Assembly: GCA_002686365.1 (NCBI GenBank) | Contig: NZBZ01000015.1 | Coordinates: 1 to 46,891, forward strand | Direction of reading: 5' to 3' | Source of the DNA: a bacterium | GTDB taxonomy: Bacteria; Patescibacteriota; Minisyncoccia; UBA6257; GWB1-50-10 | Length of the DNA stretch: 46,891 nt | Part shown: positions 12,524-33,135 of the stretch, piece after piece | How positions within the stretch are numbered: the first letter of the stretch is position 1 | Layout of the letters: each line of letters starts with the position of its first letter | Notes under the pieces: model-generated | The model's database searches: none | Told to the model about the DNA's origin: nothing | Seen by the model: only the letters and a program-made list of their open reading frames with translations | Program-made: the position numbers and the translations under genes

Positions 12524-12702
12524 CAGAGAAGAATTTTTCTCCTCGCTCGCAAGTCTCCGCGCATCAAAATTCTTTGCTCGTTCGTACACGTCAATGTGCC
12601 ACCCAGCTCGCTTTGCTCACGGGTGCCCGGCACATTGTCTACTCACTCGCAGAATTTTCCGATACGCTCTAACACGCTCGCTCGAAAAAGAATTCTTCTC
12701 TG
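12524..12702. repeat. 179-nt rod-like hairpin element (divergent copy A)
   Basis: 12-bp terminal inverted repeat CAGAGAAGAATT/AATTCTTCTCTG; nested stems aaaattct/agaatttt, caatgtgcc/ggcacattg. Confidence 0.85.
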
Positions 12703-12723
12703 GGGACAGTTAGCACTTACCGT

Positions 12724-12775
12724 TGGGAGGTGTAGGAGGTCTGTAGGTAGCTTGCTTTGCAAGCTTTTATTTTTA
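12724..12775 (+). repeat. TGGG..GAGGTCTGnnGGTA-hairpin-T run motif (copy 1)
   Basis: tgggaggtgtaggaggtctgtaggt-agcttgc-ttt-gcaagct-tttattttt. Confidence 0.8.
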
Positions 12776-12846
12776 TACTGGCGCGCTCCAGCACGCTCGC
12801 TCACAAAGATTATTTCTCTTTAGAGGAAAAGTAAGTCAGTCTTGGG

Positions 12847-12899
12847 TGGGGTGTATGAGGTCTGAAGGTATCCCCGCCAAGGCGGGGCTTTTATTTTTT
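12847..12899 (+). repeat. TGGG..GAGGTCTGnnGGTA-hairpin-T run motif (copy 2)
   Basis: tggggtgtatgaggtctgaaggtat-ccccgcc-aa-ggcgggg-cttttatttttt. Confidence 0.8.
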
Positions 12900-12925
12900 G
12901 GGGTTGGCAAGGGAGAGCTTGGAGA

Positions 12926-13309
12926 CTATTTACTTTCGTGGCTTATGTTTCCCTCGAGTATGCCTTTGAGGTTTTTTCGAGTTTCTGCTCTTTCTTCTGC
13001 CTGTTGCTTTAGTTTTTCCATGTCTGGTTTTTCGGATGGAGGTTCTTTTAACTCTTCTGCCTCCATTAAGGCTCTTAAGAGATTTTCTAGTTGATCTGTT
13101 GTTTGCGTGTTTCCAATAATTTCTCGGATTGCTTCGAGCGCTTTCGGGTCTGGGTTTTTGTCTTTGGCTGTGTCGCGGAGAAGACGAGTTGTAACTTCAA
13201 GACATCGAGTTAAGGCTTCTGCCTGGCTTCGTTCTTTTTCAGTGAGGCCTTCAGGTGTCGGAGGTTTTTCCCCGTCTGTTGGTACGGCTTTAAAGGGTTG
13301 CTCTAACAT
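12926..13309 (-). CDS. Hypothetical protein, charged and helical
   Basis: ATG ORF 7 nt downstream of the P-loop gene, same strand, protein-like composition. Confidence 0.7.
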   Translation of the reverse strand: MLEQPFKAVPTDGEKPPTPEGLTEKERSQAEALTRCLEVTTRLLRDTAKDKNPDPKALEAIREIIGNTQTTDQLENLLRALMEAEELKEPPSEKPDMEKLKQQAEERAETRKNLKGILEGNISHESK

Positions 13310-13316
13310 AAGTTTA

Positions 13317-13823
13317 TTATAGCTGATTTTTTGTTTTTATATCTTTAAGAAATTTCCACATTTCTTTTTCAGAGTTGATAATGTGGATTTTTTTCTTGTT
13401 CTTCCATTTTTTTAGACTTTTGAGAATGCCTGGGCGTTTTCTTTTTGGGAAGTTCCAGATATACATGATGAATTCTAAGTCGAGTTTTTCAATACAGCCT
13501 GGAGCAACTTGTGTTTTTTTAATGCGTCGTTTCAACACCCTCCATAAACAGATGAGGCGTGGTACATCCATGAAGATTATTGTGTCAGCTCGTGGGATGC
13601 GGAGGTCGAGGGTTGACTGGTACATGCCATCCAAAATCCACTCATTTTTTTGGATGAGTTTTTGTACTTTGTTTTTCCACTCATCGTCTTTTGGGCGTAC
13701 CCAGTTAGGGTGCCAGTAAAGCTGGTCCAGATTGATGAGTGGTATTCGGAGATGTTTCTTTAATTCTCGGGCAAGAGTGGATTTTCCTGCTCCTGCAGGG
13801 CCAATTATGAGGATGCGTTTCAT
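13317..13823 (-). CDS. P-loop kinase-like protein of the FlaR/topology modulation family
   Basis: IIGPAGAGKSTLA, LDQLYWHPNW, WILDGMY, RADTIIFMD, GCIEKLDLEF. Confidence 0.85.
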   Translation of the reverse strand: MKRILIIGPAGAGKSTLARELKKHLRIPLINLDQLYWHPNWVRPKDDEWKNKVQKLIQKNEWILDGMYQSTLDLRIPRADTIIFMDVPRLICLWRVLKRRIKKTQVAPGCIEKLDLEFIMYIWNFPKRKRPGILKSLKKWKNKKKIHIINSEKEMWKFLKDIKTKNQL

Positions 13824-13850
13824 CCCGTTTAGTATACGGATTTCGCGGAG

Positions 13851-14063
13851 TTACTCCAATTCTTTTGTGATGTGGTGGGTGATGTAAAGGATGATAATCC
13901 CAATGATTGCTGAGGTAATATAGCTTATGAGTTCGTTCGAAGGGAAGAGGTAAAGATCCATAAGTCCCCATATTCCTCTCCAGAATAATATAACTGCTAA
14001 TCCGATTAGTACTGCGTGGAGTACTTGGTGTTTTTTGTCTTTTGGTTGTCGGAATAGGCTCAT
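13851..14063 (-). CDS. Small two-TM membrane protein
   Basis: FWRGIWGLMDLYLFP between two hydrophobic helices; start overlaps trpS stop. Confidence 0.75.
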   Translation of the reverse strand: MSLFRQPKDKKHQVLHAVLIGLAVILFWRGIWGLMDLYLFPSNELISYITSAIIGIIILYITHHITKELE

Positions 14064-15028
14064 AGGAGTCCTACTTTTTGTTTTGCTTCTTCTGTAGTTT
14101 CTTTAGCGATTTTTTGTACTTTTTTATTGCCGGATGTAAATATTTTTACAATTTGTGTTTTGCTTGCTTGTTTTTTTCGAAAGCTGCTTAATTTTTCTAC
14201 AGTGAGTTTTGTAAGGTCAGCTTTGAAGTCAGCATATCCTTTGTTTTTATATTTCTTCACAATAGTTTCAGGAGTTGTTTCATCAAGCTCAGCGAATATT
14301 TGTACTAAGTTGGAGATGCCGGGGCGTTTTTGCGGGTCATAATTAATTGTGGCTTCAGAGTCTGTTACTGCTGATTTTATTTTTTCTGTGATTGTCGTTG
14401 GTGAGTCAGTAAGGAAGAGGCATCCGTTTGGAGATGATTTTGACATTTTCTGCTCTGGGTTTTTTAGAGACATAATGCGGGGAGTGCGTGTGTGGAGTGC
14501 CTTTGGCTCAAAAAAGGTTTTTCCGAACTTCTTGTTGAAGCTTCTTGCTAGTGTTCTTGTAAGTTCCAGGTGCTGGTCTTGGTCATCTCCTACTGGGACT
14601 ACTTTGGCTTTGTACATTAGGATATCTGCGGCCATGAGCGTTGGATAGGTGAAGAGCCCCGCATTCTGTGAAATGCCGCGAGCAGTTTTGTCTTTGTACT
14701 GGGTCATTCGTTCAAGCTCTCCCATTGGGGTTATTGTGTTAAAGATCCAGCCGAGGATTGTGTGTTCTGGAATTTGTGATTGGACAAAGAGGGTTGATTT
14801 TGTGCTTAGGCCTGCGGCAAGGAAGTTTACCATTAGTTCTTCGGTGTTTTTCTTTTGCTCTGCGGGGCTTGGGCGTTCGGTTAAGGAGTGGAGGTCAGCA
14901 ATAAAGAAGAAACAGTTGTACTTCCCCGAGTTTTGCAGTTCAACGAAGTTTTTTAGCGCTCCTAAGTAGTTCCCAATGTGGAGGGTGCCTGATGGCTGTA
15001 TGCCTGATACGAGTACTGGTTTTGGCAT
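14060..15028 (-). CDS. trpS: Tryptophan--tRNA ligase
   Basis: SGIQPSGTLHIGNYLGA, YPTLMAADI, VPVGDDQDQH, KMSKS. Confidence 0.97.
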   Translation of the reverse strand: MPKPVLVSGIQPSGTLHIGNYLGALKNFVELQNSGKYNCFFFIADLHSLTERPSPAEQKKNTEELMVNFLAAGLSTKSTLFVQSQIPEHTILGWIFNTITPMGELERMTQYKDKTARGISQNAGLFTYPTLMAADILMYKAKVVPVGDDQDQHLELTRTLARSFNKKFGKTFFEPKALHTRTPRIMSLKNPEQKMSKSSPNGCLFLTDSPTTITEKIKSAVTDSEATINYDPQKRPGISNLVQIFAELDETTPETIVKKYKNKGYADFKADLTKLTVEKLSSFRKKQASKTQIVKIFTSGNKKVQKIAKETTEEAKQKVGLL

Positions 15029-15029
15029 A

Positions 15030-16796
15030 TTAAACTTCAATAATCACTGGTAAGACCATTGGTCGCCTGTTGGTCTTATTATACAGGAAGCTGCTTATTT
15101 GGTCTTTCATGATGTTTTTTACGTAATCCGCGTCCACATCTTGATAGTGGGGGATTCGGCCAATGATGCCTCGGATTCTTTTCCTGATTTCGTTTAGGAG
15201 TTCTTTGTTCTCCTTGAGATAGATGAATCCTCTCGAGATAATGTCTGGGTTCTTAATTACCTTTCCGGTCTTTCTGTTTATTGAGGCGATTATTACTACC
15301 ATTCCTTCTTGCGCAAGTGTTCGTCTGTCACGCAGTACTACCTCTCCAATATCACCAACGCCGAGCCCGTCTACGAAAACGTAGGACGCAGGGACTCGTT
15401 CTCCTGTTAGTTCGGCTTTGGTTTTTGTGAATTCTACTATATCGCCATTATCTGCCATAACAGTATTTTCTTTTTTTATTCCGGTCTGTATTCCCAGGTC
15501 TCTGTTTGTGGAACGCATGAAGTAGTATCCATGAATAGGAACGAAGAATTTTGGCTTTATTGTTTTTAGTACCTCCTTAATTTCTTCTTGCGGGGCATGG
15601 CCTGAGGAGTGAATGTCCATTGTCTCTGATGTGTGAATAATGGCTTCTTGTCTTGCAAGATTGTCTTTCAGGGTTTGTACGCTTCGTTCATTTCCGGGAA
15701 TAACAGAAGAGGAGAAGATGAAGGTATCTCCGGGCTTTACTCTGATTTGTCTGTGTTCTCCATTTGCGATTTTCATGAGGCTTGCGTCTGGTTCTCCTTG
15801 GGCTCCTGTGCAGAGTATGACGAGCTTGTTGTCGTTATATTTATTTATCTCCTCCAGATTTATCATGGTTCCTCTTTCTATTTTCATGTGTCCGAGGTTT
15901 TGGGCTATCTGGATGTTTGTTTTCATTGAGAGGCCGGAGGTTGCAACTACCTTACCCATTTTTTCCGCTACTTTGACGATTTCGTAGAGGCGGTCTAGGA
16001 GGGAGGAGAAAGTTCCGACAATAATTCTTCCTTCTGCTTTCTTTAGCAGCTCTTCAATGTTTTCTATCACTGTTTCTTCTGGTACTGATATTCCCGGTTT
16101 TATTGCTCCCGTTGAGTCTTGGAGGAAGGCATAGGTGTCTTTTTTCGCAAGAGTCTTGAAGGATTCTAGTGTTTTTGACTTTCCTTTTGAGTCTCGGTCC
16201 AGCTTGTATTCTCCGGGATGGAGTATTCTTCCTGCCGGAGTTTCAAGGACTGTTCCTATTGTGTCAGGTATGTTGTGTTGTACATCAAAGAATTCTGCCT
16301 TGAAGTTTTTCGAGAGTTCTTCTTTGTCCCCGGCTTTTACGATTTTAAAGTTTAGGCGCGGGGCATTTGGAAGCTCTTCTTGACGCCTTTTTATTAGTTC
16401 TTTTGAGAGGCCTGTTGTGTAGATTAGAGGGTTTCCAAGCCGTCCTGTCAGATAAGGAATTCCTCCTATGTGGTCTAAATGGGCGTGTGTGATGATAACG
16501 GCTTTGATATTTTCTTTTTTCTTTTCGAGATAAGAGATATCAGGGATTATGAAATCTATTCCCGGAGTTTCTTCTTCAGGAAATTGGAGTCCCATATCAA
16601 TAATTACGATTTCGTCTTTGTATTCGAAAAACATCATGTTGCGTCCGACTTCTTCAAATCCTCCTAGTGCAGCAAAACGAAGCGCGTTTTTGTTTGCGGG
16701 TTTTCGGGGAGATGATTTTCTTATTGGTTTTCTACGACTTGTTTCTCTTCTTGGTCTTGGTGGTCTTCTTCTTGGTGTATTTTTTCTTTTTTCCAT
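15030..16796 (-). CDS. rnj: Ribonuclease J
   Basis: LGGFEEVGRNM, THAHLDHIGG, TGAQGEP, SSSVIPGNE, HSSGHA, RRPMVLPVI. Confidence 0.96.
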   Translation of the reverse strand: MEKRKNTPRRRPPRPRRETSRRKPIRKSSPRKPANKNALRFAALGGFEEVGRNMMFFEYKDEIVIIDMGLQFPEEETPGIDFIIPDISYLEKKKENIKAVIITHAHLDHIGGIPYLTGRLGNPLIYTTGLSKELIKRRQEELPNAPRLNFKIVKAGDKEELSKNFKAEFFDVQHNIPDTIGTVLETPAGRILHPGEYKLDRDSKGKSKTLESFKTLAKKDTYAFLQDSTGAIKPGISVPEETVIENIEELLKKAEGRIIVGTFSSLLDRLYEIVKVAEKMGKVVATSGLSMKTNIQIAQNLGHMKIERGTMINLEEINKYNDNKLVILCTGAQGEPDASLMKIANGEHRQIRVKPGDTFIFSSSVIPGNERSVQTLKDNLARQEAIIHTSETMDIHSSGHAPQEEIKEVLKTIKPKFFVPIHGYYFMRSTNRDLGIQTGIKKENTVMADNGDIVEFTKTKAELTGERVPASYVFVDGLGVGDIGEVVLRDRRTLAQEGMVVIIASINRKTGKVIKNPDIISRGFIYLKENKELLNEIRKRIRGIIGRIPHYQDVDADYVKNIMKDQISSFLYNKTNRRPMVLPVIIEV

Positions 16797-16825
16797 ATTT
16801 TTGTTAATTATTTCGACTTTTTTAT

Positions 16826-16886
16826 TCCCACACATAATCTCAATAATTTTATATTAAAGCTTGTTCAATTGAGATTATGTGTGGGA
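16826..16886. repeat. Inverted-repeat element TCCCACACATAATCTCAAT...ATTGAGATTATGTGTGGGA (copy 2)
   Basis: Perfect 19-bp stem with 23-nt loop; region flanked by direct repeat ttatttcgactttt at 16808-16821 and 16921-16934. Confidence 0.85.
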
Positions 16887-16945
16887 TGAATTCCCGCTAG
16901 GGGCGGGCATTTTATTTTAGTTATTTCGACTTTTAATTTTTTGGG

Positions 16946-17029
16946 TGCCCTCGAGAGGACTCGAACCTCTATGAGATTACTCTCACAGCGTCCTGAACGC
17001 TGCGCGTCTACCAGTTTCGCCACGAGGGC
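16946..17029 (-). tRNA. tRNA-Leu(CAG)
   Basis: GCCCUCG acceptor stem, anticodon arm CAGCG-UUCAGGA-CGCUG, long variable arm, GGUUCGAGUCC; CCA not encoded. Confidence 0.96.
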
Positions 17030-17035
17030 AGTGGC

Positions 17036-18664: not shown

Positions 18665-18669
18665 TCTCT

Positions 18670-18879
18670 CTACAAGATGAGATTTATGATTGCGAGCGTG
18701 AAGAAAGCAACGGCGCTTATGATTGTGGCTTGATACATCTTTTTCTCTACTCCTCTTCTTGTGTGGTGAGGAGTAGCGCCCCCGCCCCCAAAGACGCCTG
18801 AAAGTCCGCTAGACCGTTCTTGGACTAGTATAAGGACGATGAGTATGATTGAGATGATTACTTGGAGGAGGATTAGCAT
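18670..18879 (-). CDS. secG: Preprotein translocase subunit SecG
   Basis: ILVQERSSGLSGVFGG...TRRGVEK between two TM helices. Confidence 0.92.
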   Translation of the reverse strand: MLILLQVIISIILIVLILVQERSSGLSGVFGGGGATPHHTRRGVEKKMYQATIISAVAFFTLAIINLIL

Positions 18880-18885
18880 GGGACT

Positions 18886-18919
18886 ATACGAATATCGAAT
18901 AAGGCACGAATATACGAAT
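18886..18919. repeat. Short CGAAT-based tandem repeat
   Basis: atacgaat atcgaat aaggcacgaat atacgaat. Confidence 0.65.
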
Positions 18920-18934
18920 TATATTTTGTTTATT

Positions 18935-19297
18935 TTATTCCTTTTTATGGGAGGTTTTCTTACTCAGCGTGATAATGACGTTTATGAAGCTGATGAGCAG
19001 AGTTGCTAAAAGGAGTGAAATGTATCCCTCAATTGTAAGAGAATCTCTCAAAATGTCAAGAGTGTATAAGAATGCGGCGTTTATTACTATGCTTAGGAGG
19101 CCTAGCGTAATGATAATAAAGGGCGTGAGAAGAAATTTGATTATTGGTTTTATAAAGGTGTTTATCGCAGTAAAGATAATGGAGGTTATAAGTAGTTCTT
19201 CAAAATTTCCTACAAAGGTAAAGTTTGTAATTAGGTAGTCTGCGGCAAGTATTCCGAATGCGTTGCCAATTATGTGCAGAATTATGCGCGTGAGCAT
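18935..19297 (-). CDS. 4-TM phage-holin-like (YvlD/DUF360) membrane protein
   Basis: INTFIKPIIKFLLTPFIIITLGLLSIVINA. Confidence 0.88.
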   Translation of the reverse strand: MLTRIILHIIGNAFGILAADYLITNFTFVGNFEELLITSIIFTAINTFIKPIIKFLLTPFIIITLGLLSIVINAAFLYTLDILRDSLTIEGYISLLLATLLISFINVIITLSKKTSHKKE

Positions 19298-19304
19298 ATG
19301 TATA

Positions 19305-20189: not shown

Positions 20190-20320
20190 GTAGTGATTAG
20201 TGATTAATGACTATGATTATGACAGTTTTATTGTACAGGAACTGATAACCGGGGACTAGTAACTGCTCATTTTGTTGGTTTTTTCTTGACTTTTTCAGGT
20301 TTCTGCGATATTCTTTTTTC

Positions 20321-20587: not shown

Positions 20588-20603
20588 AGTTTTATAAGAA
20601 TAT

Positions 20604-21203: not shown

Positions 21204-23279
21204 ATGGATTTAGAACGAAAAATATATAAAACAGAAGTTGATGATGCTCCATTTGAATTGGAGATTTCGAATTTGGCTGTACAGGCAAATGGCGCAGTGC
21301 TTGGCAGATGGGGAAATACATCAGTACTTGTGACAGCAGTTATGGGTGGGGAGTCGTCTTTGCCGTACTTTCCTTTAACAGTGGATTATGAGGAGCGGTT
21401 TTATGCTGCTGGACAGATTTTGGGTTCTAGGTTTGTTCGTCGGGAAGGCAGGCCTTCGGATGAGGCTACGCTTTCTGCGCGGCTTCTTGATAGAACTATT
21501 AGGCCTTTGTTTGATCATAGGCTTAGGCGGGAGATTCAGGTTGTTGTGACTGTTTTGGAATATGACAAAGAACATGATCCAGAGTTGATTGCTCTTGTTG
21601 CAGCATCTTGCGCTTTGGGCATATCAGATATTCCGTGGAATGGTCCTGTTGGCGCAGCGCGATTTGAAAAGAAGAGTAAAGAGGAAGAGTTGGAGTATCT
21701 TGCGTTTTTTGCTGGTACTGAAAATAGGGTGAACATGATTGAGTTTGAGGGCAATGAGTCATCTGAGGCAGAGGCAGTTGAGCTTTTTGAGAAGGGCGAG
21801 AAGCAGATCCAGGAGTTAGTTAAGTTTCAGAAGAAGATTATTAAAGAGATTGGCAAGAAGAAGACAGAGGTTCAGCTTCCAGAGACGGATAAGCGAATTG
21901 CAGGAGAGGTAGAGAAGTTTTTGAAGTCAAAGCTTACAGGAACGTTTAAAAAAGGAGAGCTTTACGCTTTGAAAGATGAGCTTATGGACGTTCTTGTTGG
22001 TGCGGGAGAGGAGCCTGATGCGCTTCATGAGGCAGAAGATATTTTTGAACATGAAGTAGATGCATATGTTCATACAGAGGCCTTGGAGAATGACAGGCGG
22101 ATTGATGGGAGAAAGCTTCAAGAGATACGCGATTTGCATGCTGAAGTAGGACTCTTTGAGCGTGTTCACGGCACAGGACTTTTTGTGCGGGGAGATACGC
22201 AGGTTTTGGCTGCTGCCACTTTAGGGCCGCCTTCTGCGGATCAGATTGTTGAGACTATGAAGACTCAGGAGAAAAAGCGGTTTATGCTTCACTACAACTT
22301 TCCGAGTTTTTCTGTTGGTGAGGCTGGGCGCGCGCATGGGCCTGGACGGCGTGATATTGGACATGGGTATTTGGCATTTAAGGCATTGAGGGCAATGCTT
22401 CCTTCAAAAGAAGAGTTCCCATATGTGATTCGTATTGTTGCTGAGACTTTGTCTTCAAATGGGTCGTCTTCTATGGCATCAACATGCGCTGGATGTCTTT
22501 CTATGCTTGACGCTGGTGTTCCTTTGAAGAAACTTGTTGCGGGAATTGCAATGGGGCTTATGGTTTCAAAAGATGGAGATTATAAGGTTTTGACTGATAT
22601 ACAGGGGCCGGAAGATTATCATGGAGATATGGATTTTAAGGTTGCTGGAACAGAGGATGGAATTACTGCTATCCAGATGGATGTAAAAATTGATGGAGTA
22701 ACAAAGGATATGTATGTAGATGCTTTAGATGAGGCAAAGAAGGCGCGCCTCCAGATTTTGGAGGTTATGAAAAAGACTATTGCAAAGCCGAATGAGCTTT
22801 CGCAGTATGCGCCTCGAATTATTACAACAAAGATTGCTCCTGATAAGATTGGAGAGCTTATTGGCCCTGGGGGTAAGGTGATTAATGGAATCTTAGAGCA
22901 GTTTGATAATGAAGCTACTATTGATATAGAAGATGATGGTACGGTCTATATTGGAGCAGAGAGTGGGGAGATTGGTGATAAGGTTTTGGCAATGGTAGAG
23001 GCAGTTGTGAAGGAGTATGAGGTTGGAGAAATTGTTGAGGGGCCAATTGTTCGTGTCATGGAGTTTGGAGCTATTGTTGATTTGGGAAGCGGCAGGGATG
23101 GGATGATTCATGTTTCAGAATTAAAAGAGGGGTTTGTTAAAAATGTAGAAGATGTTGTGAAAATGGGGGATAAGGTGAAGGCTAAGATTGTGAAGGTTGA
23201 TAATGGGAAGATAGGGCTTAGTTTGAAGGCTATGAAGGTTGAGGAGAAGAGGAAGGATGAGAAGAAGGGGGAGAAATAG
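21204..23279 (+). CDS. pnp: Polyribonucleotide nucleotidyltransferase
   Basis: FPLTVDYEE, RREGRPS, HYNFPSFSVGE, SNGSSSMAS, GDMDFKVAGT, KH (IGPGGK) and S1 domains. Confidence 0.98.
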   Translation: MDLERKIYKTEVDDAPFELEISNLAVQANGAVLGRWGNTSVLVTAVMGGESSLPYFPLTVDYEERFYAAGQILGSRFVRREGRPSDEATLSARLLDRTIRPLFDHRLRREIQVVVTVLEYDKEHDPELIALVAASCALGISDIPWNGPVGAARFEKKSKEEELEYLAFFAGTENRVNMIEFEGNESSEAEAVELFEKGEKQIQELVKFQKKIIKEIGKKKTEVQLPETDKRIAGEVEKFLKSKLTGTFKKGELYALKDELMDVLVGAGEEPDALHEAEDIFEHEVDAYVHTEALENDRRIDGRKLQEIRDLHAEVGLFERVHGTGLFVRGDTQVLAAATLGPPSADQIVETMKTQEKKRFMLHYNFPSFSVGEAGRAHGPGRRDIGHGYLAFKALRAMLPSKEEFPYVIRIVAETLSSNGSSSMASTCAGCLSMLDAGVPLKKLVAGIAMGLMVSKDGDYKVLTDIQGPEDYHGDMDFKVAGTEDGITAIQMDVKIDGVTKDMYVDALDEAKKARLQILEVMKKTIAKPNELSQYAPRIITTKIAPDKIGELIGPGGKVINGILEQFDNEATIDIEDDGTVYIGAESGEIGDKVLAMVEAVVKEYEVGEIVEGPIVRVMEFGAIVDLGSGRDGMIHVSELKEGFVKNVEDVVKMGDKVKAKIVKVDNGKIGLSLKAMKVEEKRKDEKKGEK

Positions 23280-23283
23280 GACG

Positions 23284-23471
23284 AACATTCTTTTTTCTTT
23301 TCATGTGCTTCGTTCGGATGAAATAATTTTACTCCTCAGAAGAAAATACGGCACAGTGCGAACTCGTCCCGCCTTAGCGGGACTCAGACAACGCACCGTG
23401 CCTTTTTCTTTGTCTTCGTCGTTTAATATTTCATTTCCTCACTCCGCCATACTCAAAGACAAAAGAATGTT
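23284..23471. repeat. 188-nt rod-like hairpin element (copy B)
   Basis: Ends aacattctttt/aaaagaatgtt; inner ggcacagtgcg/cgcaccgtgcc; colinear with 32851-33039; mini-hairpin gtcccgccttagcgggac at the tip. Confidence 0.9.
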
Positions 23472-23501
23472 TGCCCTTTGAGAGGAGTATGGTCCTTCTC
23501 G

Positions 23502-23566
23502 TGGGAGGTAGAGGAGGTCTGTTGGTAGCTCACTGCGCCCGCGAGGCTCGTGAGCTTTTTTATTTT
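23502..23566 (+). repeat. TGGG..GAGGTCTGnnGGTA-hairpin-T run motif (copy 3)
   Basis: tgggaggtagaggaggtctgttggt-agctcac...gtgagct-tttttatttt. Confidence 0.8.
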
Positions 23567-24889: not shown

Positions 24890-24927
24890 CGCCTACGATA
24901 TTTTGTCATAAAGACGAGGCGAAAATA

Positions 24928-24971: not shown

Positions 24972-25029
24972 TTACCTTGAATGTTTTTTGCCCTAGGTTA
25001 AAACCTAGATCAAGGCCTAGGGCAGATTT

Positions 25030-25069
25030 TAACTTAGGTTAGTATCCGGCCGGATACTAACCTAAGTTA
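25030..25069. repeat. Perfect 40-bp palindrome
   Basis: taacttaggttagtatccgg|ccggatactaacctaagtta; preceded by ctaggtt-aa-aacctag (24993-25008). Confidence 0.95.
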
Positions 25070-25091
25070 GATTTTCTTATAGGAAGTCGTC

Positions 25092-25808: not shown

Positions 25809-25838
25809 TTTGAAAAGCTCCTGTAGCTTTCTCTTATT

Positions 25839-28364
25839 TTACCACGGTTCTACTATCAAAAGGGTTTTCTTTTTCTTGCCTTGTAAGTCTTGGAGGTGTT
25901 GGAAGATTTCTTCAGTTGCGTACGGCATGAAGGGATGAAGCATCTTTATGCTCTCTGTGAGGATTGTTATAAGAGTTTCGAGTGCTGCAGCTTTGTCTTT
26001 TTTATCTCCATTTTGGAGGCGCGGTTTTGTTTCCTCTATTATTTTATCAGCAAATGTGTGCCAAATGTAGTGGTAGGTGATCTCGGCAGCGCGGTGAAAC
26101 TCGAATTTTTCCAAATGTTTTGTTACTTTCTTTTTTGTTGCTTCTAATTGCTTTAGATTTTTTTTATCTTTTGGTGTGATGACTGGCTTTGTTTTTATTT
26201 CTTCATAGTTCATTGAGATGAATCTTGTGATGTTCCAGATTTTGGTTGCAAAGTTGCGATAGCCGCGTATTTTGTCTTCGGAGATTGTGCTATTTCTGCC
26301 TGGCGTGTTTCCTGCGATTAGTGCCATGCGCACTGCGTCTGTTCCATACTCTTCTGCAACTCCTAGTGGATTAATTACATTTCCTTTTGATTTGGACATT
26401 TTCTGCTTGTCTTTATCTAAAATTAAGCCGTGTAAATATACGTTTTTGAATGGTAGTTTCTTTGTCCTATAAATTCCCATCATTATCATTCGTGCGACCC
26501 AAAAGAAGAGAATATCAGAAGCGGTTTCCATTACGGACGTTGGGTAGAAGTCTTTAAAGTCTTTATCGTGTTTTCCTGAATTTTTGAAGCCTAGTGTGAG
26601 ATATGGCCACTGACCAGAGGAGAACCAGGTATCGAATACGTCGGGATCTTGAGAGAGCTTTTCGCTTTTGCAGCTGGGACATTGTTTTGGTTTCTCAATA
26701 CTAACAATAGGAGGACACGATGAGCTTATAGCTTTTAGCTTCATTAGCTTATTAGCTTTTTTGAAGGTGTAGTGGTAGGCGAAGACGGGGGTTTGCAGTG
26801 TAATGTTTTTATCTGGATTGTGCTTTTTGAAGGCCCTTAAGAGTTCGTCTCTTGTTTTGTACGTTGCGTAATGTGTTTTGTCTTTTAAGTTCATTGTGCC
26901 TACGGTAAGTTTTTCCACCTTCGTGATTGTTCCGTGGCCGAATATCTTTTCTTCCTGACTGTTTTCAAAAGCTACTGCATCTCCTTTTTTGAAGCCGTGG
27001 TCGCGAATTCTCCATGTTGCGATTTTTCCTTTGAATATTTGCGGTACGACGCTTTCGTGGAAACCCATTGTTAGCTTATAGCTTTTAGCTTCATTAGTTT
27101 TTTCGCATATCCATGCTGGAATGCGGATGCCCCAGATAATTTGGCGGGAGATGTTCCAGTCTTCTATGTTTTTCAGCCAGTGGAGTATAACTTTTTTGCG
27201 GTGCGTTGGAATGATTTTTATTTTTCCTTTTTCTATTGTTTCAATCGCTGGTTTTGCTAGCGGCTTCGTCTTTACATACCACTGGGGGAGAGGAATTGGT
27301 TCTAGGGTGCGTTCGCATTTGAAGCAGACAGCGAGGTTGTGTGTGTAGTTTTCGTCAACTTTTACAAGTAGGCCTTTTTTCTTTAAGTCTTCTACAACTT
27401 TTTCACGCGCCTCCATTACTTTCATCCCCGCGTAGCGGCCTGCGTGTTCGTTTAGTTTTCCGTAGCGATCTATTACTTGTTTTACTTCGAGATTGTGTCG
27501 TGTTCCGATTTCGGCATCTAGCGGATCGTGTGCTGGGGTTACTTTAATTACTCCGGTTCCGAATTCTGGATCCACTGCTTTGTCAGCAATTACTTTTATT
27601 TTGAACTTGCCAAGTAGTCCTTGTACCTCAACTTCTTTTCCTATGTATTTTTTGTAACGTTTATCGTTTGGGTGAACAGCTATTGCTGTATCTCCGAATT
27701 TTGTTTCTGGTCGCGCAGTTGCAAGAGTGAATGGTCCGTATTTCATATAGTAGAGTTTTCCTTTTTCCTCTTTTCGTTTTACTTCAAGGCCGGAGAGCGC
27801 TGTTTGATGCTTTACGCACCAGTTTACTGTGCGAAGTCCTCTATATATGAGACCCTCTTTATGCATTTTGATAAATGTGTGTTGTACTTCTTTTATAATG
27901 TCTGGGTCAAGGGTGAACTTCTCTCTGGACCAGTCGCAGGAGGCGCCTAGTTTGCGGAGTTGGTTCTCCATTGTTTTTTTGTTCTCTTGGGTAAATTCAT
28001 ACATTTCCTGCCAGAGTTTTTTGCGATCCATTTTGAATCTGCTTCGCCCTTCTTTCTCAAGTTTTTTATCAAACACAACTTGCGTTTCAAATCCTGCATG
28101 ATCTGCGCCGGGGAGCCAGAGCGTTTTTTGGCCTTTCATTCGAGCAAAGCGAATCATGATATCTTCAAGTGTTACAAAGAGTGCGTGGCCAATATGAAGA
28201 GAGCCATTCGCGTTTGGGGGAGGCATTATGATACAAAAGCTTTTAGCTTTTAGCTTCGTTAGCTTTTTAGTTTTCGGAAGGTTGTCGGGGTTGAAAAAGC
28301 CGGACTTTTCCCACAGGGAGTATATTTTTTCTTCTACTTTGTCTGGAATGTATCTTTTGTCCAT
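25839..28364 (-). CDS. valS: Valine--tRNA ligase with inserted ASCH-like domain, no C-terminal coiled coil
   Basis: MPPPNANGSLHIGH, PGADHAG, GTGVIKVTPAHD, DWNISRQIIWG, DTWFSSGQWP, KMSKS. Confidence 0.97.
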   Translation of the reverse strand: MDKRYIPDKVEEKIYSLWEKSGFFNPDNLPKTKKLTKLKAKSFCIIMPPPNANGSLHIGHALFVTLEDIMIRFARMKGQKTLWLPGADHAGFETQVVFDKKLEKEGRSRFKMDRKKLWQEMYEFTQENKKTMENQLRKLGASCDWSREKFTLDPDIIKEVQHTFIKMHKEGLIYRGLRTVNWCVKHQTALSGLEVKRKEEKGKLYYMKYGPFTLATARPETKFGDTAIAVHPNDKRYKKYIGKEVEVQGLLGKFKIKVIADKAVDPEFGTGVIKVTPAHDPLDAEIGTRHNLEVKQVIDRYGKLNEHAGRYAGMKVMEAREKVVEDLKKKGLLVKVDENYTHNLAVCFKCERTLEPIPLPQWYVKTKPLAKPAIETIEKGKIKIIPTHRKKVILHWLKNIEDWNISRQIIWGIRIPAWICEKTNEAKSYKLTMGFHESVVPQIFKGKIATWRIRDHGFKKGDAVAFENSQEEKIFGHGTITKVEKLTVGTMNLKDKTHYATYKTRDELLRAFKKHNPDKNITLQTPVFAYHYTFKKANKLMKLKAISSSCPPIVSIEKPKQCPSCKSEKLSQDPDVFDTWFSSGQWPYLTLGFKNSGKHDKDFKDFYPTSVMETASDILFFWVARMIMMGIYRTKKLPFKNVYLHGLILDKDKQKMSKSKGNVINPLGVAEEYGTDAVRMALIAGNTPGRNSTISEDKIRGYRNFATKIWNITRFISMNYEEIKTKPVITPKDKKNLKQLEATKKKVTKHLEKFEFHRAAEITYHYIWHTFADKIIEETKPRLQNGDKKDKAAALETLITILTESIKMLHPFMPYATEEIFQHLQDLQGKKKKTLLIVEPW
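26723..27097. repeat. 25-bp direct repeat AGCTTATAGCTTTTAGCTTCATTAG flanking the ValRS insert
   Basis: Identical copies at 26723-26747 and 27073-27097; third related array at about 28237-28274. Confidence 0.95.
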
Positions 28365-28446
28365 TGGTGTGTGGTGAGTAATGGGTATTCTGTTTGGATA
28401 TTAAAATAATACGAGGAAATAAGGATTTTCGCAAAAGATATTATGT

Positions 28447-29496
28447 TTATATGCTTAGGCTTCCTTTTGCTTTTAGTGCGTATTTCTTTTTTCGGAGATG
28501 GGTTATGTATCCTGCGACAGCAATCATTGCAGCATTGTCGCCTTGGAATTTTTTATTTGCAGATAGAAAATTTAGCTTATAGCTTTTAGCTTGTAGCTTC
28601 ATTAGCTTTTGGAGATTGGAGTTTGCAGCTACGCCGCCTGATAGGATTATTGATTTTGCGTTGTGTTCTTGTGCAGCACGCATGGTTTTTGTAATGAGTA
28701 CGTCTATTGCTGCCTGCTGAAAGCTTGCTGCGACGTTAGCTTTTAGCTTATAGCTTTTAGCTTCGTTAGCTTTTAAGTAGTAGAGTACAGAGGTTTTTAA
28801 TCCGGAGAAGGAGAAGTCATAGTTTTTGTCGCGTATCATTGGGCGAGGGAAGTCAATTGCATCTGGATTTCCTTTTTTTGCCAGCGTTTCTATTTCTGGT
28901 CCACCAGGATAGGGGAGCTTTAGCATTCTAGCTACTTTATCAAATGCCTCGCCTGCTGCGTCGTCTCTTGTTTCTCCGAGCTTTTTATAGTCAGTGAGAG
29001 ATTTCATGAGTATAAGGATTGTGTGGCCACCTGATACCAGCAGTTGCACTGCTGGATAGCTTATAGCTTTTAGCTTATAGCTTTTGGGCAAAAGGAAGCT
29101 GTACATGTGTCCGTGCAAGTGATTTGTTCCAATTATTTTTGTGGTTCGACTTCGCTCACTATAAATTTTTGGAAAGTGTTTCTTTTTTATTTCTTTTGCA
29201 AAGTTTACGCCTGTCCAGAGTGCAGGCTCTAGTCCGGGGCCGACGGTGACGGCTATTGCGTTAGCTTTTAGCTTATAGCTTTTAGCTTCTAGCTTTTTAA
29301 ATAGAAGCGGTAGGTTTTTTTCATGTTCGCGTTTGGCGAGGTTGGGGACTACTCCGCCCCAAGCACGGTGAATTTCAATTTGAGAGGCAATAAAATGTTT
29401 TTTAATGTTGAATTTTGGTGCTTTTAAGCCTCCTTTTGCCTCAATGAGTGCAAGGGAGGTTTCGTCACAGGATGTTTCAATGGCTAATATGTTCAT
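28447..29496 (-). CDS. tsaD: tRNA threonylcarbamoyltransferase TsaD with five short repeat-derived segments
   Basis: ILAIETSCDET, GGVVPNLAKREH, VTVGPGL, NHLHGH, VSGGHT, DDAAGEAFDKVAR, FSFSGLKT, GGVAAN, DNAAMIA. Confidence 0.97.
   Translation of the reverse strand: MNILAIETSCDETSLALIEAKGGLKAPKFNIKKHFIASQIEIHRAWGGVVPNLAKREHEKNLPLLFKKLEAKSYKLKANAIAVTVGPGLEPALWTGVNFAKEIKKKHFPKIYSERSRTTKIIGTNHLHGHMYSFLLPKSYKLKAISYPAVQLLVSGGHTILILMKSLTDYKKLGETRDDAAGEAFDKVARMLKLPYPGGPEIETLAKKGNPDAIDFPRPMIRDKNYDFSFSGLKTSVLYYLKANEAKSYKLKANVAASFQQAAIDVLITKTMRAAQEHNAKSIILSGGVAANSNLQKLMKLQAKSYKLNFLSANKKFQGDNAAMIAVAGYITHLRKKKYALKAKGSLSI
28572..29298. repeat. Four TAGCTTW 7-mer arrays and one REP-like unit inside tsaD
   Basis: Arrays at 28572-28610, 28736-28774, 29057-29085, 29261-29298; ggttcgacttcgctcactataaa at 29143-29165. 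Confidence 0.92.
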
Positions 29497-29591
29497 AGCG
29501 CATTTACTATGACAAATGATAATGACAATGACAAATGTTTTAGGTTATGACGACTTGAGTTTTTTGTGTGAGGCGGTGATAATATGAATAT

Positions 29592-29957
29592 ATGATTCAG
29601 CCGTTTTTTGCGCTTTTAGATTGGGGATTTTTGCTTTTGCGGATTGCGCTTGGAGTAGTTTTAATAATTCACGCATTCCCAAGGCTTAGGCGTTTTGGCA
29701 GTCCAGGAGGATTCTGGGCTGGAGCTTTAGGCGTTTTTGAGCTTTTAGGCGGACTTGCGATTGCATTAGGTTTTCTTACTCAAATTATTGCTGGTCTTTT
29801 TGTTATTGAATTTCTAGTCATTCTTTTCGCAGCACAGCGAAAAGCTTCTTTTAAAGAGAAACAGGTTAGCATTCTTGTTTTGGGAGCAATGCTTCTTCTT
29901 GTGACTGGAGGCGGAGCATTTTCTTTGGATGAGACAATTGGGTGGATATTTTACTAG
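29592..29957 (+). CDS. DoxX-family membrane protein
   Basis: LLLRIALGVVLIIHA, ELLGGLAIALGFLTQ, GGGAFSLD. Confidence 0.88.
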   Translation: MIQPFFALLDWGFLLLRIALGVVLIIHAFPRLRRFGSPGGFWAGALGVFELLGGLAIALGFLTQIIAGLFVIEFLVILFAAQRKASFKEKQVSILVLGAMLLLVTGGGAFSLDETIGWIFY

Positions 29958-29975
29958 GCCCTGGAATTTATTTGT

Positions 29976-30509
29976 ATGAGTGAATATTCTACGGAGGCGA
30001 TTATTTTGGGGAGGAGGGAAAATGGACCGTATAATAGGATTGTGGATTTGTATACAAAGGAGCTTGGTCGGGTTGAGGCGCGGGTTGTGAGCGGTAGAAA
30101 GATTATTTCTCGGCTTTCTCCTCATCTGGACTTTGGAAATCTTGCGCATGTTCGGCTGGTTTATAAGAATCAGTTTACTGTTGCGGATGCTCTTACAGAG
30201 GAGCGTTTTTTTTCCGGACCAGAGGATATAGGAGTGTATGAGCGTTTTTCCCGGCTTGCATTTTTGTTCTGCTCCCTTGCTCCTCAAATGATTCCGGACG
30301 TTGAGGTGTGGGACATGTTTCTTCGGGGTTTGAGAAAACGAGGATTGGACTATAGAATGTTTTTATCTCTTTTTGGGTATGGGGCGTTGCACGCAGAATG
30401 TTCTGCATGCGCCCGATCCGGGTCCCATGCGTTTTTTGTTCCAGATCAGAGTTTTTTGTGCGCATCCTGCGCAGAGATGTTTCCAAAAGATTTATTAGTA
30501 TTTTTGTAA
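29976..30509 (+). CDS. recO: DNA repair protein RecO (short form)
   Basis: TEAIILGR, LYTKELGRVEA, GRKIISRLSPHLD; C-terminal CSAC...CASC zinc motif. Confidence 0.85.
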   Translation: MSEYSTEAIILGRRENGPYNRIVDLYTKELGRVEARVVSGRKIISRLSPHLDFGNLAHVRLVYKNQFTVADALTEERFFSGPEDIGVYERFSRLAFLFCSLAPQMIPDVEVWDMFLRGLRKRGLDYRMFLSLFGYGALHAECSACARSGSHAFFVPDQSFLCASCAEMFPKDLLVFL

Positions 30510-30515
30510 TTTTTT

Positions 30516-32858
30516 ATGGCTGTTCGAAAAAAAACAACACGTTCAAAAAAAAGAAAGCCTGTTGCAGGGCGAAGAAAGGCTACTCGAGCCTTACCAAAGA
30601 AGCGTTCCGTGACTACTCGGAAGAAGTCTTCTGCGGTGCGTTTGTCTGTTTCTCATGAGCCAATAGAGGAGGTTCCATTGGATTCGTCAGTTGATCTGCG
30701 GGATAGTCATGAGGTGTCTTTGGCGCGTTCAGATTATGACTTTGAGGAAGAGGAGAGGCGCTTTCATGTTCGTAGATCGCGTGTATCTCATGATGTGTCT
30801 TCTCGTGAATTAGAAGACTCTGTTGAAAAGAAACGTAGTAAGTTTGCTTTTTGGTCAAAAAGAAAGAAGAATAACTCACAAGAACCCGAGGAGCTTTTAG
30901 TGCGGGGTATGGTAGGGAATTTTCAGGAAGAAGATGAAGATGATAAAGACGACTCTGATGAGGCATCTTTACGCGCATCTCATCCTGAAGAGAAAGATTT
31001 GGAAGATAATTCACCTTCTCGATCAATGAGATTTTTTAAGTTTTTAATTACTTTTTTCGTATTTCTTTCGATCGTTGCGTTACTTATTAGCGGTTATTTT
31101 TTGTTTATTCATGGGCGCTCGTCTGGAGATGTTAGTCTTGAGCTTGAGCTTCCGAAGGATGTGTATCAGGGAGTTCCCTTTGATTTAGAGCTTTCTTTAG
31201 AGAATAATTCGGATGGTCTTTTGGGAGATGCCCAGCTTAGTCTTCTTGCTCCTCCTGATATTCTTATTCTTGATAGTAATGCAGATGGACAGCTTTTGAA
31301 GGAATCACTCGGGGATGTTGGGTCTGGAAATGCGCAGAAAAAGATTTTTCGATTTGTTGCTGTATCCGCGTCTTCTTTGGATTCGTCAGAAGATAACTCT
31401 GAGAGCGGAGATGATTTAGAGGATTCTACAGATATTATTTTGAGTGATGGTGATATGGGGAATGAGGTTCGAAAGATTACTGCTCGGCTTTCATATTCTT
31501 TAGGAAAGAGTTCGGGATTTGAGGTAGAGGCTTCAGAGGGTGTGCGTGTACGCGGATCTGCTCTTTCAGTAGATCTTCAGAATGAAGAAGGGCAGGTCTT
31601 AAGCGGGTCTACATTTCGTTTTAATATTTTATACTCGAATGTTTCTAATGCGGATCTTGATGATCTTCGTTTGAGCGTTGCTTATCCGGATTCTTTCAAA
31701 TATATTTCTTCGGATTTGCCGCCGGATTCCTTAGATAATTACTGGAAACTTGGTTCCCTGCGGTCGGGCTCGGAAGGCAAGCTTTCTATTCAGGGAAGCT
31801 TGGAGGGGGCTGATAACGAGGAGTTTCCATTTCCCATTCGTGTGTATGGCGCGTTTTTAGGCAGTGAGTATCTTATTGGAGAGTATGCAGTAGGGCTTGG
31901 GGTTGCTCCGTCTCCTATTGGCCTTGAGGTGTTTGTAAATGGCGGGGAAGATTATACTGCGCGAGCAGGAGAGGATTTGCGATATGTGATTCGTTATACA
32001 AACAATAGCGGGGTTGCGCTTTCTGACTTTGTTCTGCGCGCGAGTCTTCTTGGGGACATGTTTGATGTTTCAACTCTTCAGTCTAGCTCTACGGTTGATT
32101 CGAGGGGTCGGCATGTGTGGGATAAGAATAATACTTCGGAGTTCCGTTCTATCGAGGCAGGAGGCCGCGGTGAGATAGATTTTGAGGTGAGTGTGAAAGA
32201 TCAGTTTCCTATTGTTCGGCTTGGAGATAAAAATTTTCGTCTTCGGGCTAGCGTAGAGGCTAGTTCTCCTACGGTTCCGTATTATTTGATAGGGGATAAG
32301 ACGCGGGCGCTTTATGATAGCTCTGTAAAGGTTTCAGGCCGTGTTGATGTTGATGCAAAGGCGTTTTATCGGGATTCGGATTCTGGAATGATAAATGGCG
32401 GCACGCTTCCTCTTGCAGTTGGAAGTCCTACTGACTTTACGATTCACTGGGTTCTTCGGAACTATTCTACAAATGTTCGGGATGTGAGCGTTAAGGCGTC
32501 TTTGCCGCATGGCGTAGAGTGGACAGGGTTTGTAAAGAGCGACACTGATACTGTTCCTTTATATGATGAGCTTACTCGGGAGATTTTGTGGGAGATACCG
32601 GAGATTCTTGCTACAAAGGGAGTGCTTGACTCTCCGCTTCAGGGCATATTCCAGATTCGTGTTACGCCTGAGGCATCATACATTGGCAAGCTTCATCCGC
32701 TTTTGGAGGGAACAGAGCTTACAGCTGCGGATGATTTTACTGGGATTACGCTTAGGGCAAGTGATTTTGCGCTTACATCTATACTTCTTGATGATCCAAC
32801 TGTGGGTTCTGGTTCTGGGATTGTTATTTCTCCTGCTGGCAGTGGAGAGGAGGAATAG
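30516..32858 (+). CDS. Large single-TM protein with disordered N-terminus and beta-sandwich (Ig/DUF11-like) extracellular repeats
   Basis: Basic then acidic N-terminus, TM at FFKFLITFFVFLSIVALLISGYFLF, repeated YxIxYxN and W-x-L/I-G motifs. Confidence 0.8.
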   Translation: MAVRKKTTRSKKRKPVAGRRKATRALPKKRSVTTRKKSSAVRLSVSHEPIEEVPLDSSVDLRDSHEVSLARSDYDFEEEERRFHVRRSRVSHDVSSRELEDSVEKKRSKFAFWSKRKKNNSQEPEELLVRGMVGNFQEEDEDDKDDSDEASLRASHPEEKDLEDNSPSRSMRFFKFLITFFVFLSIVALLISGYFLFIHGRSSGDVSLELELPKDVYQGVPFDLELSLENNSDGLLGDAQLSLLAPPDILILDSNADGQLLKESLGDVGSGNAQKKIFRFVAVSASSLDSSEDNSESGDDLEDSTDIILSDGDMGNEVRKITARLSYSLGKSSGFEVEASEGVRVRGSALSVDLQNEEGQVLSGSTFRFNILYSNVSNADLDDLRLSVAYPDSFKYISSDLPPDSLDNYWKLGSLRSGSEGKLSIQGSLEGADNEEFPFPIRVYGAFLGSEYLIGEYAVGLGVAPSPIGLEVFVNGGEDYTARAGEDLRYVIRYTNNSGVALSDFVLRASLLGDMFDVSTLQSSSTVDSRGRHVWDKNNTSEFRSIEAGGRGEIDFEVSVKDQFPIVRLGDKNFRLRASVEASSPTVPYYLIGDKTRALYDSSVKVSGRVDVDAKAFYRDSDSGMINGGTLPLAVGSPTDFTIHWVLRNYSTNVRDVSVKASLPHGVEWTGFVKSDTDTVPLYDELTREILWEIPEILATKGVLDSPLQGIFQIRVTPEASYIGKLHPLLEGTELTAADDFTGITLRASDFALTSILLDDPTVGSGSGIVISPAGSGEEE

Positions 32859-33039
32859 AATTCTTTTCTCTTTTCATGCACTTCGTTCAGATGAAATAGT
32901 TTCACTCCTTAGAAGAAAACACGGCACAGTGCGAACTCGCTACGCTCAGACAACGCACTGTGCCTTTTTCTTTGTTTTCGTCGTTCAATATTTCATCTCC
33001 TCACTCCGCGATACTCAAAGACAAAAGAATTCTATTCCT
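32851..33039. repeat. 189-nt rod-like hairpin element (copy C)
   Basis: Perfect 17-bp ends AGGAATAGAATTCTTTT/AAAAGAATTCTATTCCT, including the upstream TAG; colinear with 23284-23471. Confidence 0.9.
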
Positions 33040-33067
33040 TTATAGGGCAGAGCATCCCAATCTTTTA

Positions 33068-33135
33068 TGGGTGATTAGAGGTCTGATGGTAGCTCACTTT
33101 GTCTTGGCTCAAGACTCGTGAGCTTTTTGTCTTTT
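33068..33135 (+). repeat. TGGG..GAGGTCTGnnGGTA-hairpin-T run motif (copy 4)
   Basis: tgggtgattagaggtctgatggt-agctcac...gtgagct-ttttgtctttt. Confidence 0.8.

Follow-up and report, generated by a model that had tools for sequence, protein, structure and literature searches.

A family of palindromic elements of about 180 nt, each folding as a long interrupted hairpin and hereafter called a rod, lies directly behind protein-coding genes in a bacterium of the candidate phyla radiation (CPR, or Patescibacteria). Three members, rods A, B and C, are carried by the 46,891-nt stretch of DNA that was analysed as a whole (contig NZBZ01000015.1; hereafter the window), downstream of ileS, pnp and a gene for a 780-aa protein, respectively. 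The rod family is real, structured and old, and is undescribed within Rfam and the literature searched. The genomes of CPR bacteria are tiny, with few regulators known and with non-coding elements that have hardly been explored; in this case, a strongly covarying structure is found across genera behind core genes such as groEL, secY, pnp, rplL and several tRNA synthetase genes. Our preferred reading, held tentatively and at somewhat less than an even chance, is that rods are palindromic repeats resembling the repetitive extragenic palindromic (REP) and enterobacterial repetitive intergenic consensus (ERIC) sequences, maintained or homogenised at the DNA level, co-transcribed in 3' untranslated regions (UTRs) and acting on the upstream mRNA.

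The source assembly (GCA_002686365.1, designated G000; 888 kb in 21 contigs, 91.5% complete) contains the window as its contig C15. A first-pass annotation of this DNA had placed an inverted repeat behind each of the three genes, and all are present within 6 nt of the limits it had given (rod B, for example, at 23278-23477 as against 23284-23471). Using the window copies as nhmmer queries, 19 loci were recovered on six contigs of G000, representing 18 full rods and one half rod; an extra half rod behind copy A brings the total to 18 full and two half rods. A sequence-blind palindrome scan of the whole assembly revealed no additional rod class. At 19 of 19 loci, the rod has the orientation of the upstream gene. 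With limits set by local self-complement alignment, the start of 17 of the 18 full rods falls between -6 and +16 nt relative to the stop codon's first base, and several left arms thus include the stop codon and the last codons; the eighteenth has ambiguous bases upstream. In the window, rod A starts 14 nt past the ileS stop codon (12508-12510), the left arm of rod B overlaps the pnp stop codon (23277-23279), and that of rod C covers the final codons of the 780-aa gene, which encodes a DUF11 protein, and its stop codon at 32856-32858 (gene limits 8932-12510, 21204-23279 and 30516-32858, respectively). The upstream genes in G000 include several for tRNA synthetases (ileS, pheS, alaS and another of class II), together with pnp, groEL, rpoD (half rod), dnaE, murG, uppS, a PBP1A-type gene and an FAD oxidase gene, the remainder encoding two surface-type proteins and four proteins with no Pfam match. 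Rfam 15 matches over the whole window were limited to a tmRNA and one tRNA, and regions A and B searched at E up to 10 gave best E values of 0.25-0.27, with scores far under gathering. A full-text literature search (without supplements) recovered no description of such elements in CPR bacteria.

Rods are built on a common scaffold, in which an A/T-rich basal stem leads to helices of 2-12 bp split by small symmetric bubbles, followed by ACGG, a stem and CCTAY around the tip. The bubbles are made of CTCG/YTCR words on both arms. Based on the tip, two types can be distinguished: type I (GCCRCCC, hairpin, GGGYRCCCGGC), with nine copies including A, and type II (CGAACTCG, mini-hairpin, CTCARACAACG), with nine copies including B and C. 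Copy A, already noted at first pass for its small resemblance to the other two, is of a different tip type, and the colinearity of B and C was borne out, with 87-90% identity per arm and outer ends that differ yet stay complementary. Readings of the tips as hammerhead, K-turn or boxA-like motifs were judged by eye only and were not convincing.

Compensatory changes strongly support a constraint on base pairing. For the nine type I copies, RNAalifold predicted 35 pairs, 23 of them with compensatory double changes. When 26 sequences from 10 genomes were aligned to R1, the covariance model of the type I core, 91.2% of the cells were paired, against 66.8% in shuffles and 28-47% with slid partners; fitting the alignment to the model favours the structure, but the margin is large. 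In this alignment, 33 of the 35 pairs had changed on both sides and the covariation score reached 0.577, compared with 0.183 for shuffles and 0.066-0.131 for slid partners, none of 500 shuffles reaching any of these measures. For type II, double changes were found in 16 of 17 predicted pairs. Folded alone, the sense strand of rod A reached -54.8 kcal/mol (z -5.05, equalled by 0 of 200 shuffles) and its antisense strand -77.0 kcal/mol (z -7.47). With flanking sequence included, z was -4.14 for B, -6.65 for C and merely -1.38 for A, for which 20 of 200 shuffles were as good.

Among 60 related genomes (labelled in the style G002-G051), R1 matched 8 and R2, the model of the type II core, matched 14, for a combined 18, some of them in the same order but in other families. 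Among 150 further genomes sampled from the class, 4 had an R1 match at E <= 1e-4 under strict filters, and a strict pattern was present in three named CPR metagenome-assembled genomes (MAGs), labelled by their depositors as Wolfebacteria (one) and Saccharibacteria (two). None of the relatives has more than 12 copies, against 19 loci in G000. Several genes carry a rod in more than one genome: a secY-like gene in G013, G017, G021 and G051; a 259-aa nuclease-like gene in G000, G002, G013 and G017 (56% identity between G000 and G017); groEL in G000 and two named CPR MAGs; pnp in G000 and G012; rplL in G002 and G017; and a 578-aa gene in G000 and G023 (39% identity). Tip type differs between genera at several of these shared loci. 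For pnp, whose locus was compared in G000 and 29 relatives, a rod occurs at 2 of 30 loci and is missing from 28. Recurrence behind the same genes across genera, combined with absence from many loci, indicates an old element that was kept at some sites and elsewhere lost or never gained, and fits long retention better than recent hopping. The first-pass annotation had not been able to assign the window repeats to a named family and suggested pursuing the matter through further copies, covariation, empty sites in relatives and copies next to a transposase. Further copies were found in this genome and in other CPR-type genomes, covariation was present, relatives have pnp loci without a rod, and no match to an Rfam family came up; copies next to a transposase had no counterpart in the families searched, as detailed below.

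Downstream of each window rod, a G-rich box, a hairpin and a T-run had been recorded at first pass. The window has four exact boxes with terminator-like hairpins, one set belonging to the half rod, which had been missed (Table 1). The exact box GAGGTCTGnnGGTA thus occurs four times in the window, compared with 0.13 expected, and allowing one mismatch gave five matches, a number reached by 0 of 100 shuffles. Ten exact occurrences were found in G000, where the box GAGGTCTGnnGGTAG (up to two mismatches) followed by a hairpin forms 14 units, each downstream of a rod. Across 10 copies, GAGGTCTG and GGTAG do not change, in contrast to the two intervening bases, the linker and the terminator stems. 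GGTAG stands ahead of 14 hairpins with unlike stems (GCTCAC, GCCCCGCC, GTTCCCGC and others), each followed by a T-run and terminator-like. The four plus-strand hairpins of Table 1 have the features of intrinsic terminators, with a stem rich in G+C and, on the gene strand, a T-run behind it. Since box and hairpin close the unit on the same strand downstream of the rods, the sense strand of the rods should therefore lie inside the transcription unit. The exact box is nearly limited to G000 (two single matches among 40 relatives); looser G-rich boxes (TTGGGKG...GGTAR) stand behind rods in G021 and in the two groEL MAGs.

Table 1. Coordinates of the three window rods and of the elements that accompany them.
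Feature	Position	Strand	Remarks
Rod A	12524-12702 (179 nt)	+	Type I tip GCCRCCC-hairpin-GGGYRCCCGGC; covariance model R1, 136.8 bits
G-rich box, copy A	12724-12750	+	TGGG, then GAGGTCTGTAGGTAG at 12736-12750
Terminator-like hairpin and T-run, copy A	12749-12775	+	Hairpin 12749-12765
Half rod directly after copy A	~12780-12826	+	Type I right arm, approximate limits; A matches 12784-12870 at 71%
Second box and terminator, behind the half rod	12857-12897	+	Box GAGGTCTGAAGGTA at 12857-12870; hairpin 12872-12887; T-run
Rod B	23278-23477 (200 nt)	+	Type II tip CGAACTCG-hairpin-CTCAGACAACG; model R2, 103.4 bits
G-rich box, copy B	23501-23528	+	GTGGGAGG, then GAGGTCTGTTGGTAG at 23514-23528
Terminator hairpin and T-run, copy B	23528-23561	+	GCTCAC...GTGAGC; inner stem 23540-23552
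Rod C	32851-33039 (189 nt)	+	Type II tip; model R2, 113.8 bits
G-rich box, copy C	33067-33092	+	ATGGGTGA, then GAGGTCTGATGGTAG at 33078-33092
Terminator hairpin and T-run, copy C	33092-33128	+	GCTCAC...GTGAGC; terminator-like site 33106-33124

Other roles considered for the box were rejected. Pairing with another RNA finds no complement elsewhere in the genome at up to two mismatches, and Shine-Dalgarno mimicry by the GGAGG-rich box is at odds with a 16S rRNA on contig C4 that lacks a CCTCC tail and with the ORF starts of the rod contigs, which show no Shine-Dalgarno enrichment. A Rho-loading (rut) site was discarded too, no Rho domain having been found in G000. Profile searches of this assembly, whose incompleteness leaves absence unproven, matched neither the Rho RNA-binding domain nor Ribosomal_L12; because Rho was not found, 3' ends would have to form by RNA structure. 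The C4 16S rRNA gene (G000:C4 ~65900-67400) ends in ...GGATTAATTCGTTTCG, and no CCTCC anti-Shine-Dalgarno sequence occurs in the next 1 kb. GGAG precedes 7-9% of ORF starts on the rod contigs and on C18 and C20, and is enriched on C6, C9 and C13. A one-mismatch copy of the box, GAGGTTTGGAGGTA, at window positions 40000-40013, is located at the start of an ORF (40005-42905) without rod or terminator and is probably there by chance.

The two strands of a rod are not equivalent. The pyrimidine-rich mismatches reported at first pass for the plus strand of the window rods proved general: on the gene strand of 18 G000 rods, 282 mismatches are pyrimidine-pyrimidine (T.C/C.T 197, T.T 51, C.C 34) and 37 are purine-purine (G.A/A.G 12, A.A 17, G.G 8), the corresponding numbers in relatives being 577 and 118. 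Unpaired columns contain 488 C, 478 T, 270 A and 145 G, yet neutral sites on the same strand of G000 are G/T-rich. Read on the antisense strand, the bubbles turn into tandem G.A pairs set in CGAG/CGAG, and the type II tip into a GCGNAGC mini-hairpin.

Indications of DNA-level copying were also obtained. A 156-nt core, about 96% identical and sharply delimited, is common to three type I copies on C4; the 10-14 bp outside it are copy-specific, complementary within each copy and include the last codons of the gene, and B and C behave likewise. The two half rods, the larger number of loci in G000 than in any relative and the pnp loci without a rod point in the same direction. By eye, the three near-identical-core copies and the B-C pair show no direct target-site duplication, their flanks being inverted. 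Profile searches of G000 gave no match to Y1_Tnp (PF01797), TnpB (PF07282), DDE_Tnp_1 (PF01609), RVT_1 (PF00078) or Phage_integrase (PF00589, and hence no XerC/D-type recombinase), other transposase families not having been searched; as a control, PF01797 matched 6 of 14 reference genomes. The sole match among nine transposase, recombinase, reverse transcriptase, Nop and Rho families searched, seven of them of mobile elements, is one rve integrase (PF00665) on contig C2, which bears no rods, and no copy adjoins a transposase of the families searched. Without an RVT_1 match, a retron or other source of reverse-transcribed cDNA was rejected. Four DNA sequencing runs, which gave short low-depth contigs, contained no bridge across an empty site; the one joint at rod C, from 28610 to 32962, corresponds to the half-rod locus G000:C4:156666 and was read as not being a deletion. 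These data would fit gene conversion confined to the homologous core or some unknown apical exchange, but not classical transposition.

The type II tip has a much wider distribution than the rods. Its 20-nt sequence was found in 20 IMG/VR contigs and, when extended by ACGG and a 9-nt stem, in at least 119 stretches of metagenome sequence. R2 matches only 5 of the 20 viral loci, and thirteen viral loci with a type II tip gave no Rfam match. Seven of the viral contigs form one group, with neighbouring sequence resembling an intergenic region of 16 Vibrio inovirus records; in the reference Vibrio phage VAI2, the motif is absent even at three mismatches. One viral-contig rod stands at the stop of a gene in antisense orientation. 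Close opposite-strand pairs among the metagenome matches listed are always arranged plus then minus (9 vs 0). One metagenome locus (L190:2790-3235) is a palindromic region of about 450 bp between divergent genes, with two 95-nt type II-tip hairpins, plus then minus, and outer hairpins, and looks like a foldback element or miniature inverted-repeat transposable element (MITE) of another organism. The type II tip, which often occurs away from gene 3' ends, is thus a component shared by many palindromic elements, and in this CPR clade it takes the form of a long bubbled rod at stop codons.

If rods are REP/ERIC-like repeats acting on the upstream mRNA, the copies would have been duplicated or homogenised at the DNA level, by gene conversion or an unknown copying process. 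Located between the stop codon of a gene and its terminator, a rod would be co-transcribed and form an interrupted hairpin of about 85 bp in the 3' UTR. Its most likely effect would be retroregulation, the hairpin serving as a barrier to 3'-to-5' exonucleases and/or as a controlled RNase III site; an RNase III gene is present on a rod-bearing contig of G000 (G000:C1:62021-62416). Coupling to translation may occur at the rod base, which a terminating ribosome would have to open, and the conserved tip and the G-rich box before the terminator would be protein-binding sites.

In favour of this reading are the co-orientation of all 19 loci with the upstream gene, the starts close to its stop codon, the box-plus-hairpin units that close the unit, the constraint on pairing, the retention behind the same genes in different genera, the RNase III gene, the failure to find Rho and the indications of DNA-level copying. 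A number of observations weigh against it. The antisense strand, which would not be transcribed, folds better in 18 of 18 rods (mean -72.8 vs -62.0 kcal/mol). The wobble pairs expected of RNA are not in excess: modelled helices have 23 G.T and 22 A.C among 834 cells (12 vs 8 in G000, 11 vs 14 in relatives), and over whole rods A.C outnumbers G.T (75 vs 51 in G000, 240 vs 171 in relatives), a neutral balance unlike that of ordinary RNA families. Nor does an RNA element predict a fixed polarity relative to the chromosome strand. At 19 of 19 G000 loci, the gene strand is the G/T-rich chromosome strand, a strand with no more than 188 of the 348 long ORFs of the rod contigs; on C1, both rods are behind genes of the 12% minority strand. 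On a 621-kb contig of G021 with a classic skew profile, all six rods are on the G-rich strand, on both sides of skew turning points, and most genes of that contig are likewise on the G-rich strand. Gene context is also less regular outside G000: of 41 rods in the relatives, only 20 stand at the end of a co-oriented ORF of 100 aa or more, and at least five are in antisense orientation beside the stop of a convergent gene, these counts being approximate, as automatic rod limits are rough. The metagenome matches listed yielded 92 distinct hairpins of at least 100 nt, of which 64 had enough flank to judge; by equally approximate counts, 5 of these 64 lie behind a co-oriented ORF and 7 next to a convergent one, with 3 counted in both groups, and 55 have neither neighbour. 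The locus L190 mentioned above is an inverted pair between divergent genes.

The strand asymmetries favour another account, rather unlikely in our view, in which the functional form is folded single-stranded DNA (ssDNA), probably of the G-A-rich antisense strand, and serves as a hairpin signal in replication or recombination, the place behind genes being secondary. Single-strand initiation signals, the intergenic hairpins of filamentous phages and the attC sites of integrons offer parallels, and this account would accommodate the mismatch bias, the tandem G.A pairs, GCGNAGC tip and greater stability of the antisense strand, the lack of a G.T preference over A.C, the polarity in both G000 and G021, and the viral contigs, among them the seven akin to the Vibrio inovirus intergenic region. 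However, as GC skew is commonly interpreted, the lagging-strand template, which is exposed at the fork, would be the G/T-rich sense strand, not the antisense one, and the start of 17 of 18 rods at the stop codon of a co-oriented gene is left without an account. Because the nine close metagenome pairs put opposite strands at one place, replication polarity is not the only rule; G000 has no match to a tyrosine recombinase, Y1 transposase or reverse transcriptase, and phage VAI2 itself lacks the motif. The G-A pairs proposed at first pass would arise on the antisense strand, and no source of single-stranded antisense nucleic acid was found. It is quite unlikely that rods represent a new class of strand-specific folded-DNA signals, with a G-A-zippered strand and a GCGNAGC tip, also present in filamentous-phage-like contigs and numerous environmental palindromes, read by a conserved replication or recombination factor that swaps or copies the apical hairpin between loci; such swapping would explain identical cores on locus-specific basal stems, fixed polarity and the absence of a transposase.

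Near-identical cores at three loci, the likeness of B and C, half copies and a patchy distribution (18 of 60 relatives, 4 of 150 class genomes, 28 of 30 pnp loci without a rod) would all be expected of a selfish, non-autonomous mobile palindrome of the MITE or foldback type, with an insertion preference for gene ends and no host function; the spread of the tip over metagenomes and the inverted pairs, arranged like the ends of a larger palindromic element, point the same way. Such an origin is nevertheless unlikely: the flanks of near-identical cores are copy-specific inverted repeats with no target-site duplication seen, the mobile-element profiles left G000 with a single rve match on a rod-free contig, and full-length pairing has been kept through compensatory changes at orthologous loci whose proteins are 39-65% identical, unlike decaying copies. 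The first-pass proposal of a mobile folded-ssDNA element or structured non-coding RNA (ncRNA) family holds as regards a structured, covarying family; for mobility, neither target duplication nor an adjoining transposase of the families searched was found. We consider it very unlikely that rods belong to an independent family of ncRNA genes, producing either a sense small RNA (sRNA) derived from the 3' UTR (the rod, or G-rich box plus terminator) or an antisense RNA from the linker. An invariant box directly 5' of the terminator, with variable linker and hairpin, does recall the seed-plus-terminator layout of 3'-UTR-derived sRNAs, and the antisense fold is the more stable one; against this, no conserved promoter-like site was found on either strand near the rods, and the box has no complement elsewhere in the genome and is essentially confined to G000.

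The host appears to be without Rho, Shine-Dalgarno pairing and common transposases. If rods control mRNA 3' ends, they would be a major post-transcriptional device of this clade; if they act as folded DNA, they would represent a new kind of chromosomal hairpin signal. In either case, the one-strand mismatch design and the widely shared 20-nt tip provide clear experimental handles.

Several further observations concern the assembly and the window. The G000 bin looks mixed: C6, C9 and C13 hold a second groEL, a dnaE-like gene and a second alaS (40%, 29% and 46% identity), and C13 has a second 16S 3' end, with CACCTCCTT. A principal component analysis of tetranucleotides did not separate rod-bearing from rod-free contigs. 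Skew at third codon positions is extreme on C1, C4, C10, C15 (the window), C16 and C21, GC3 skew ranging from +0.35 to +0.58 for the genes of one strand and from -0.23 to -0.46 for those of the other, and AT3 skew from -0.32 to -0.49 and from +0.32 to +0.41, respectively; C18, C20 and other rod-free contigs have no extreme GC3 skew. The EF-Tu and EF-G genes are on the C/A-rich strand of C1, which holds 88 of 100 long ORFs. In the window, ileS (1192 aa; 8932-12510) encodes a His_Phos_1 (histidine phosphatase) domain inside the synthetase (residues 507-672) and contains two 45-nt direct repeats with an internal palindrome (9547-9591 and 11616-11660). A perfect 40-nt palindrome (20+20, no spacer) occupies the intergenic positions 25030-25069, and many short repeats of the AGCTTWTAGCTT type are found at 26712-29303, within and between the minus-strand genes 25839-28364 and 28447-29496; a repeat of this type also precedes the half rod at G000:C4:156666. 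On C18 (G000:C18:99491-99593), a 19-nt perfect inverted repeat surrounds a tRNA-like sequence and prolongs its acceptor stem.

Rods can be compared with several known systems. The REPs and bacterial interspersed mosaic elements (BIMEs) of Escherichia coli and its relatives consist of imperfect palindromes that recur at gene 3' ends, in intergenic DNA that is transcribed along with the gene; they are thought to stabilise the upstream mRNA and to hinder translation termination when close to the stop codon. REPs measure 20-40 bp, occur in hundreds of copies, have one conserved stem sequence and are associated with a RAYT (Y1) transposase. Rods share the location at gene 3' ends, and their terminator hairpins are preceded by GTAG, as in GTAG-tagged REPs. 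They differ by their length of about 180 nt, conserved tip, regular 2x2 pyrimidine bubbles and 19 loci, by GTAG-tagged hairpins with variable stems and T-runs, and by the absence of PF01797 matches in G000. The ERIC/IRU, Correia, RUP and BOX elements are 100-200 nt in size and form one long hairpin in mRNA, in 3' UTRs or intergenic regions, with orientation-dependent effects on mRNA. Rods are likewise full-length palindromic, long-hairpin repeats near gene ends, but have no sequence similarity to these elements and no terminal inverted repeat plus target duplication; they are also strictly oriented (19 of 19 in G000), conserved at orthologous loci across genera and biased in their mismatches on one strand. 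The resemblance to REP/BIME and ERIC is thus one of lifestyle, not of sequence.

With attC sites and filamentous-phage hairpins, rods have in common the precedence of structure over sequence, a putative single functional strand and a site directly behind a coding sequence, and their type II tip occurs in contigs resembling Vibrio inoviruses. In contrast to attC sites, they are longer, lie behind housekeeping genes rather than cassettes, and have no R/L boxes and no GTTRRRY core at the ends of the window rods; G000 has no integrase or Xer-type match (PF00589). TIGR arrays with Tas (Nop-domain) proteins are reported from CPR bacteria and phages and consist of repeats of 8-12 nt, or of stem-loops, arrayed in tandem beside a tas gene (PMC12045711). 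The host group and hairpins with box C/D-like tandem G.A motifs are points of likeness (PMC12045711). An assignment to TIGR-Tas was rejected, as rods are single, dispersed and behind housekeeping genes, and the Nop domain (PF01798) has no match in G000. In phage lambda sib and in the 3' 'positive retroregulator' of Bacillus thuringiensis cry, a long hairpin just downstream of a gene determines what becomes of the upstream mRNA, by way of RNase III or an exonuclease block. These are single loci, not a repeat family, and share no sequence with rods; by analogy, they would illustrate the same mechanism as that proposed here for the rods.

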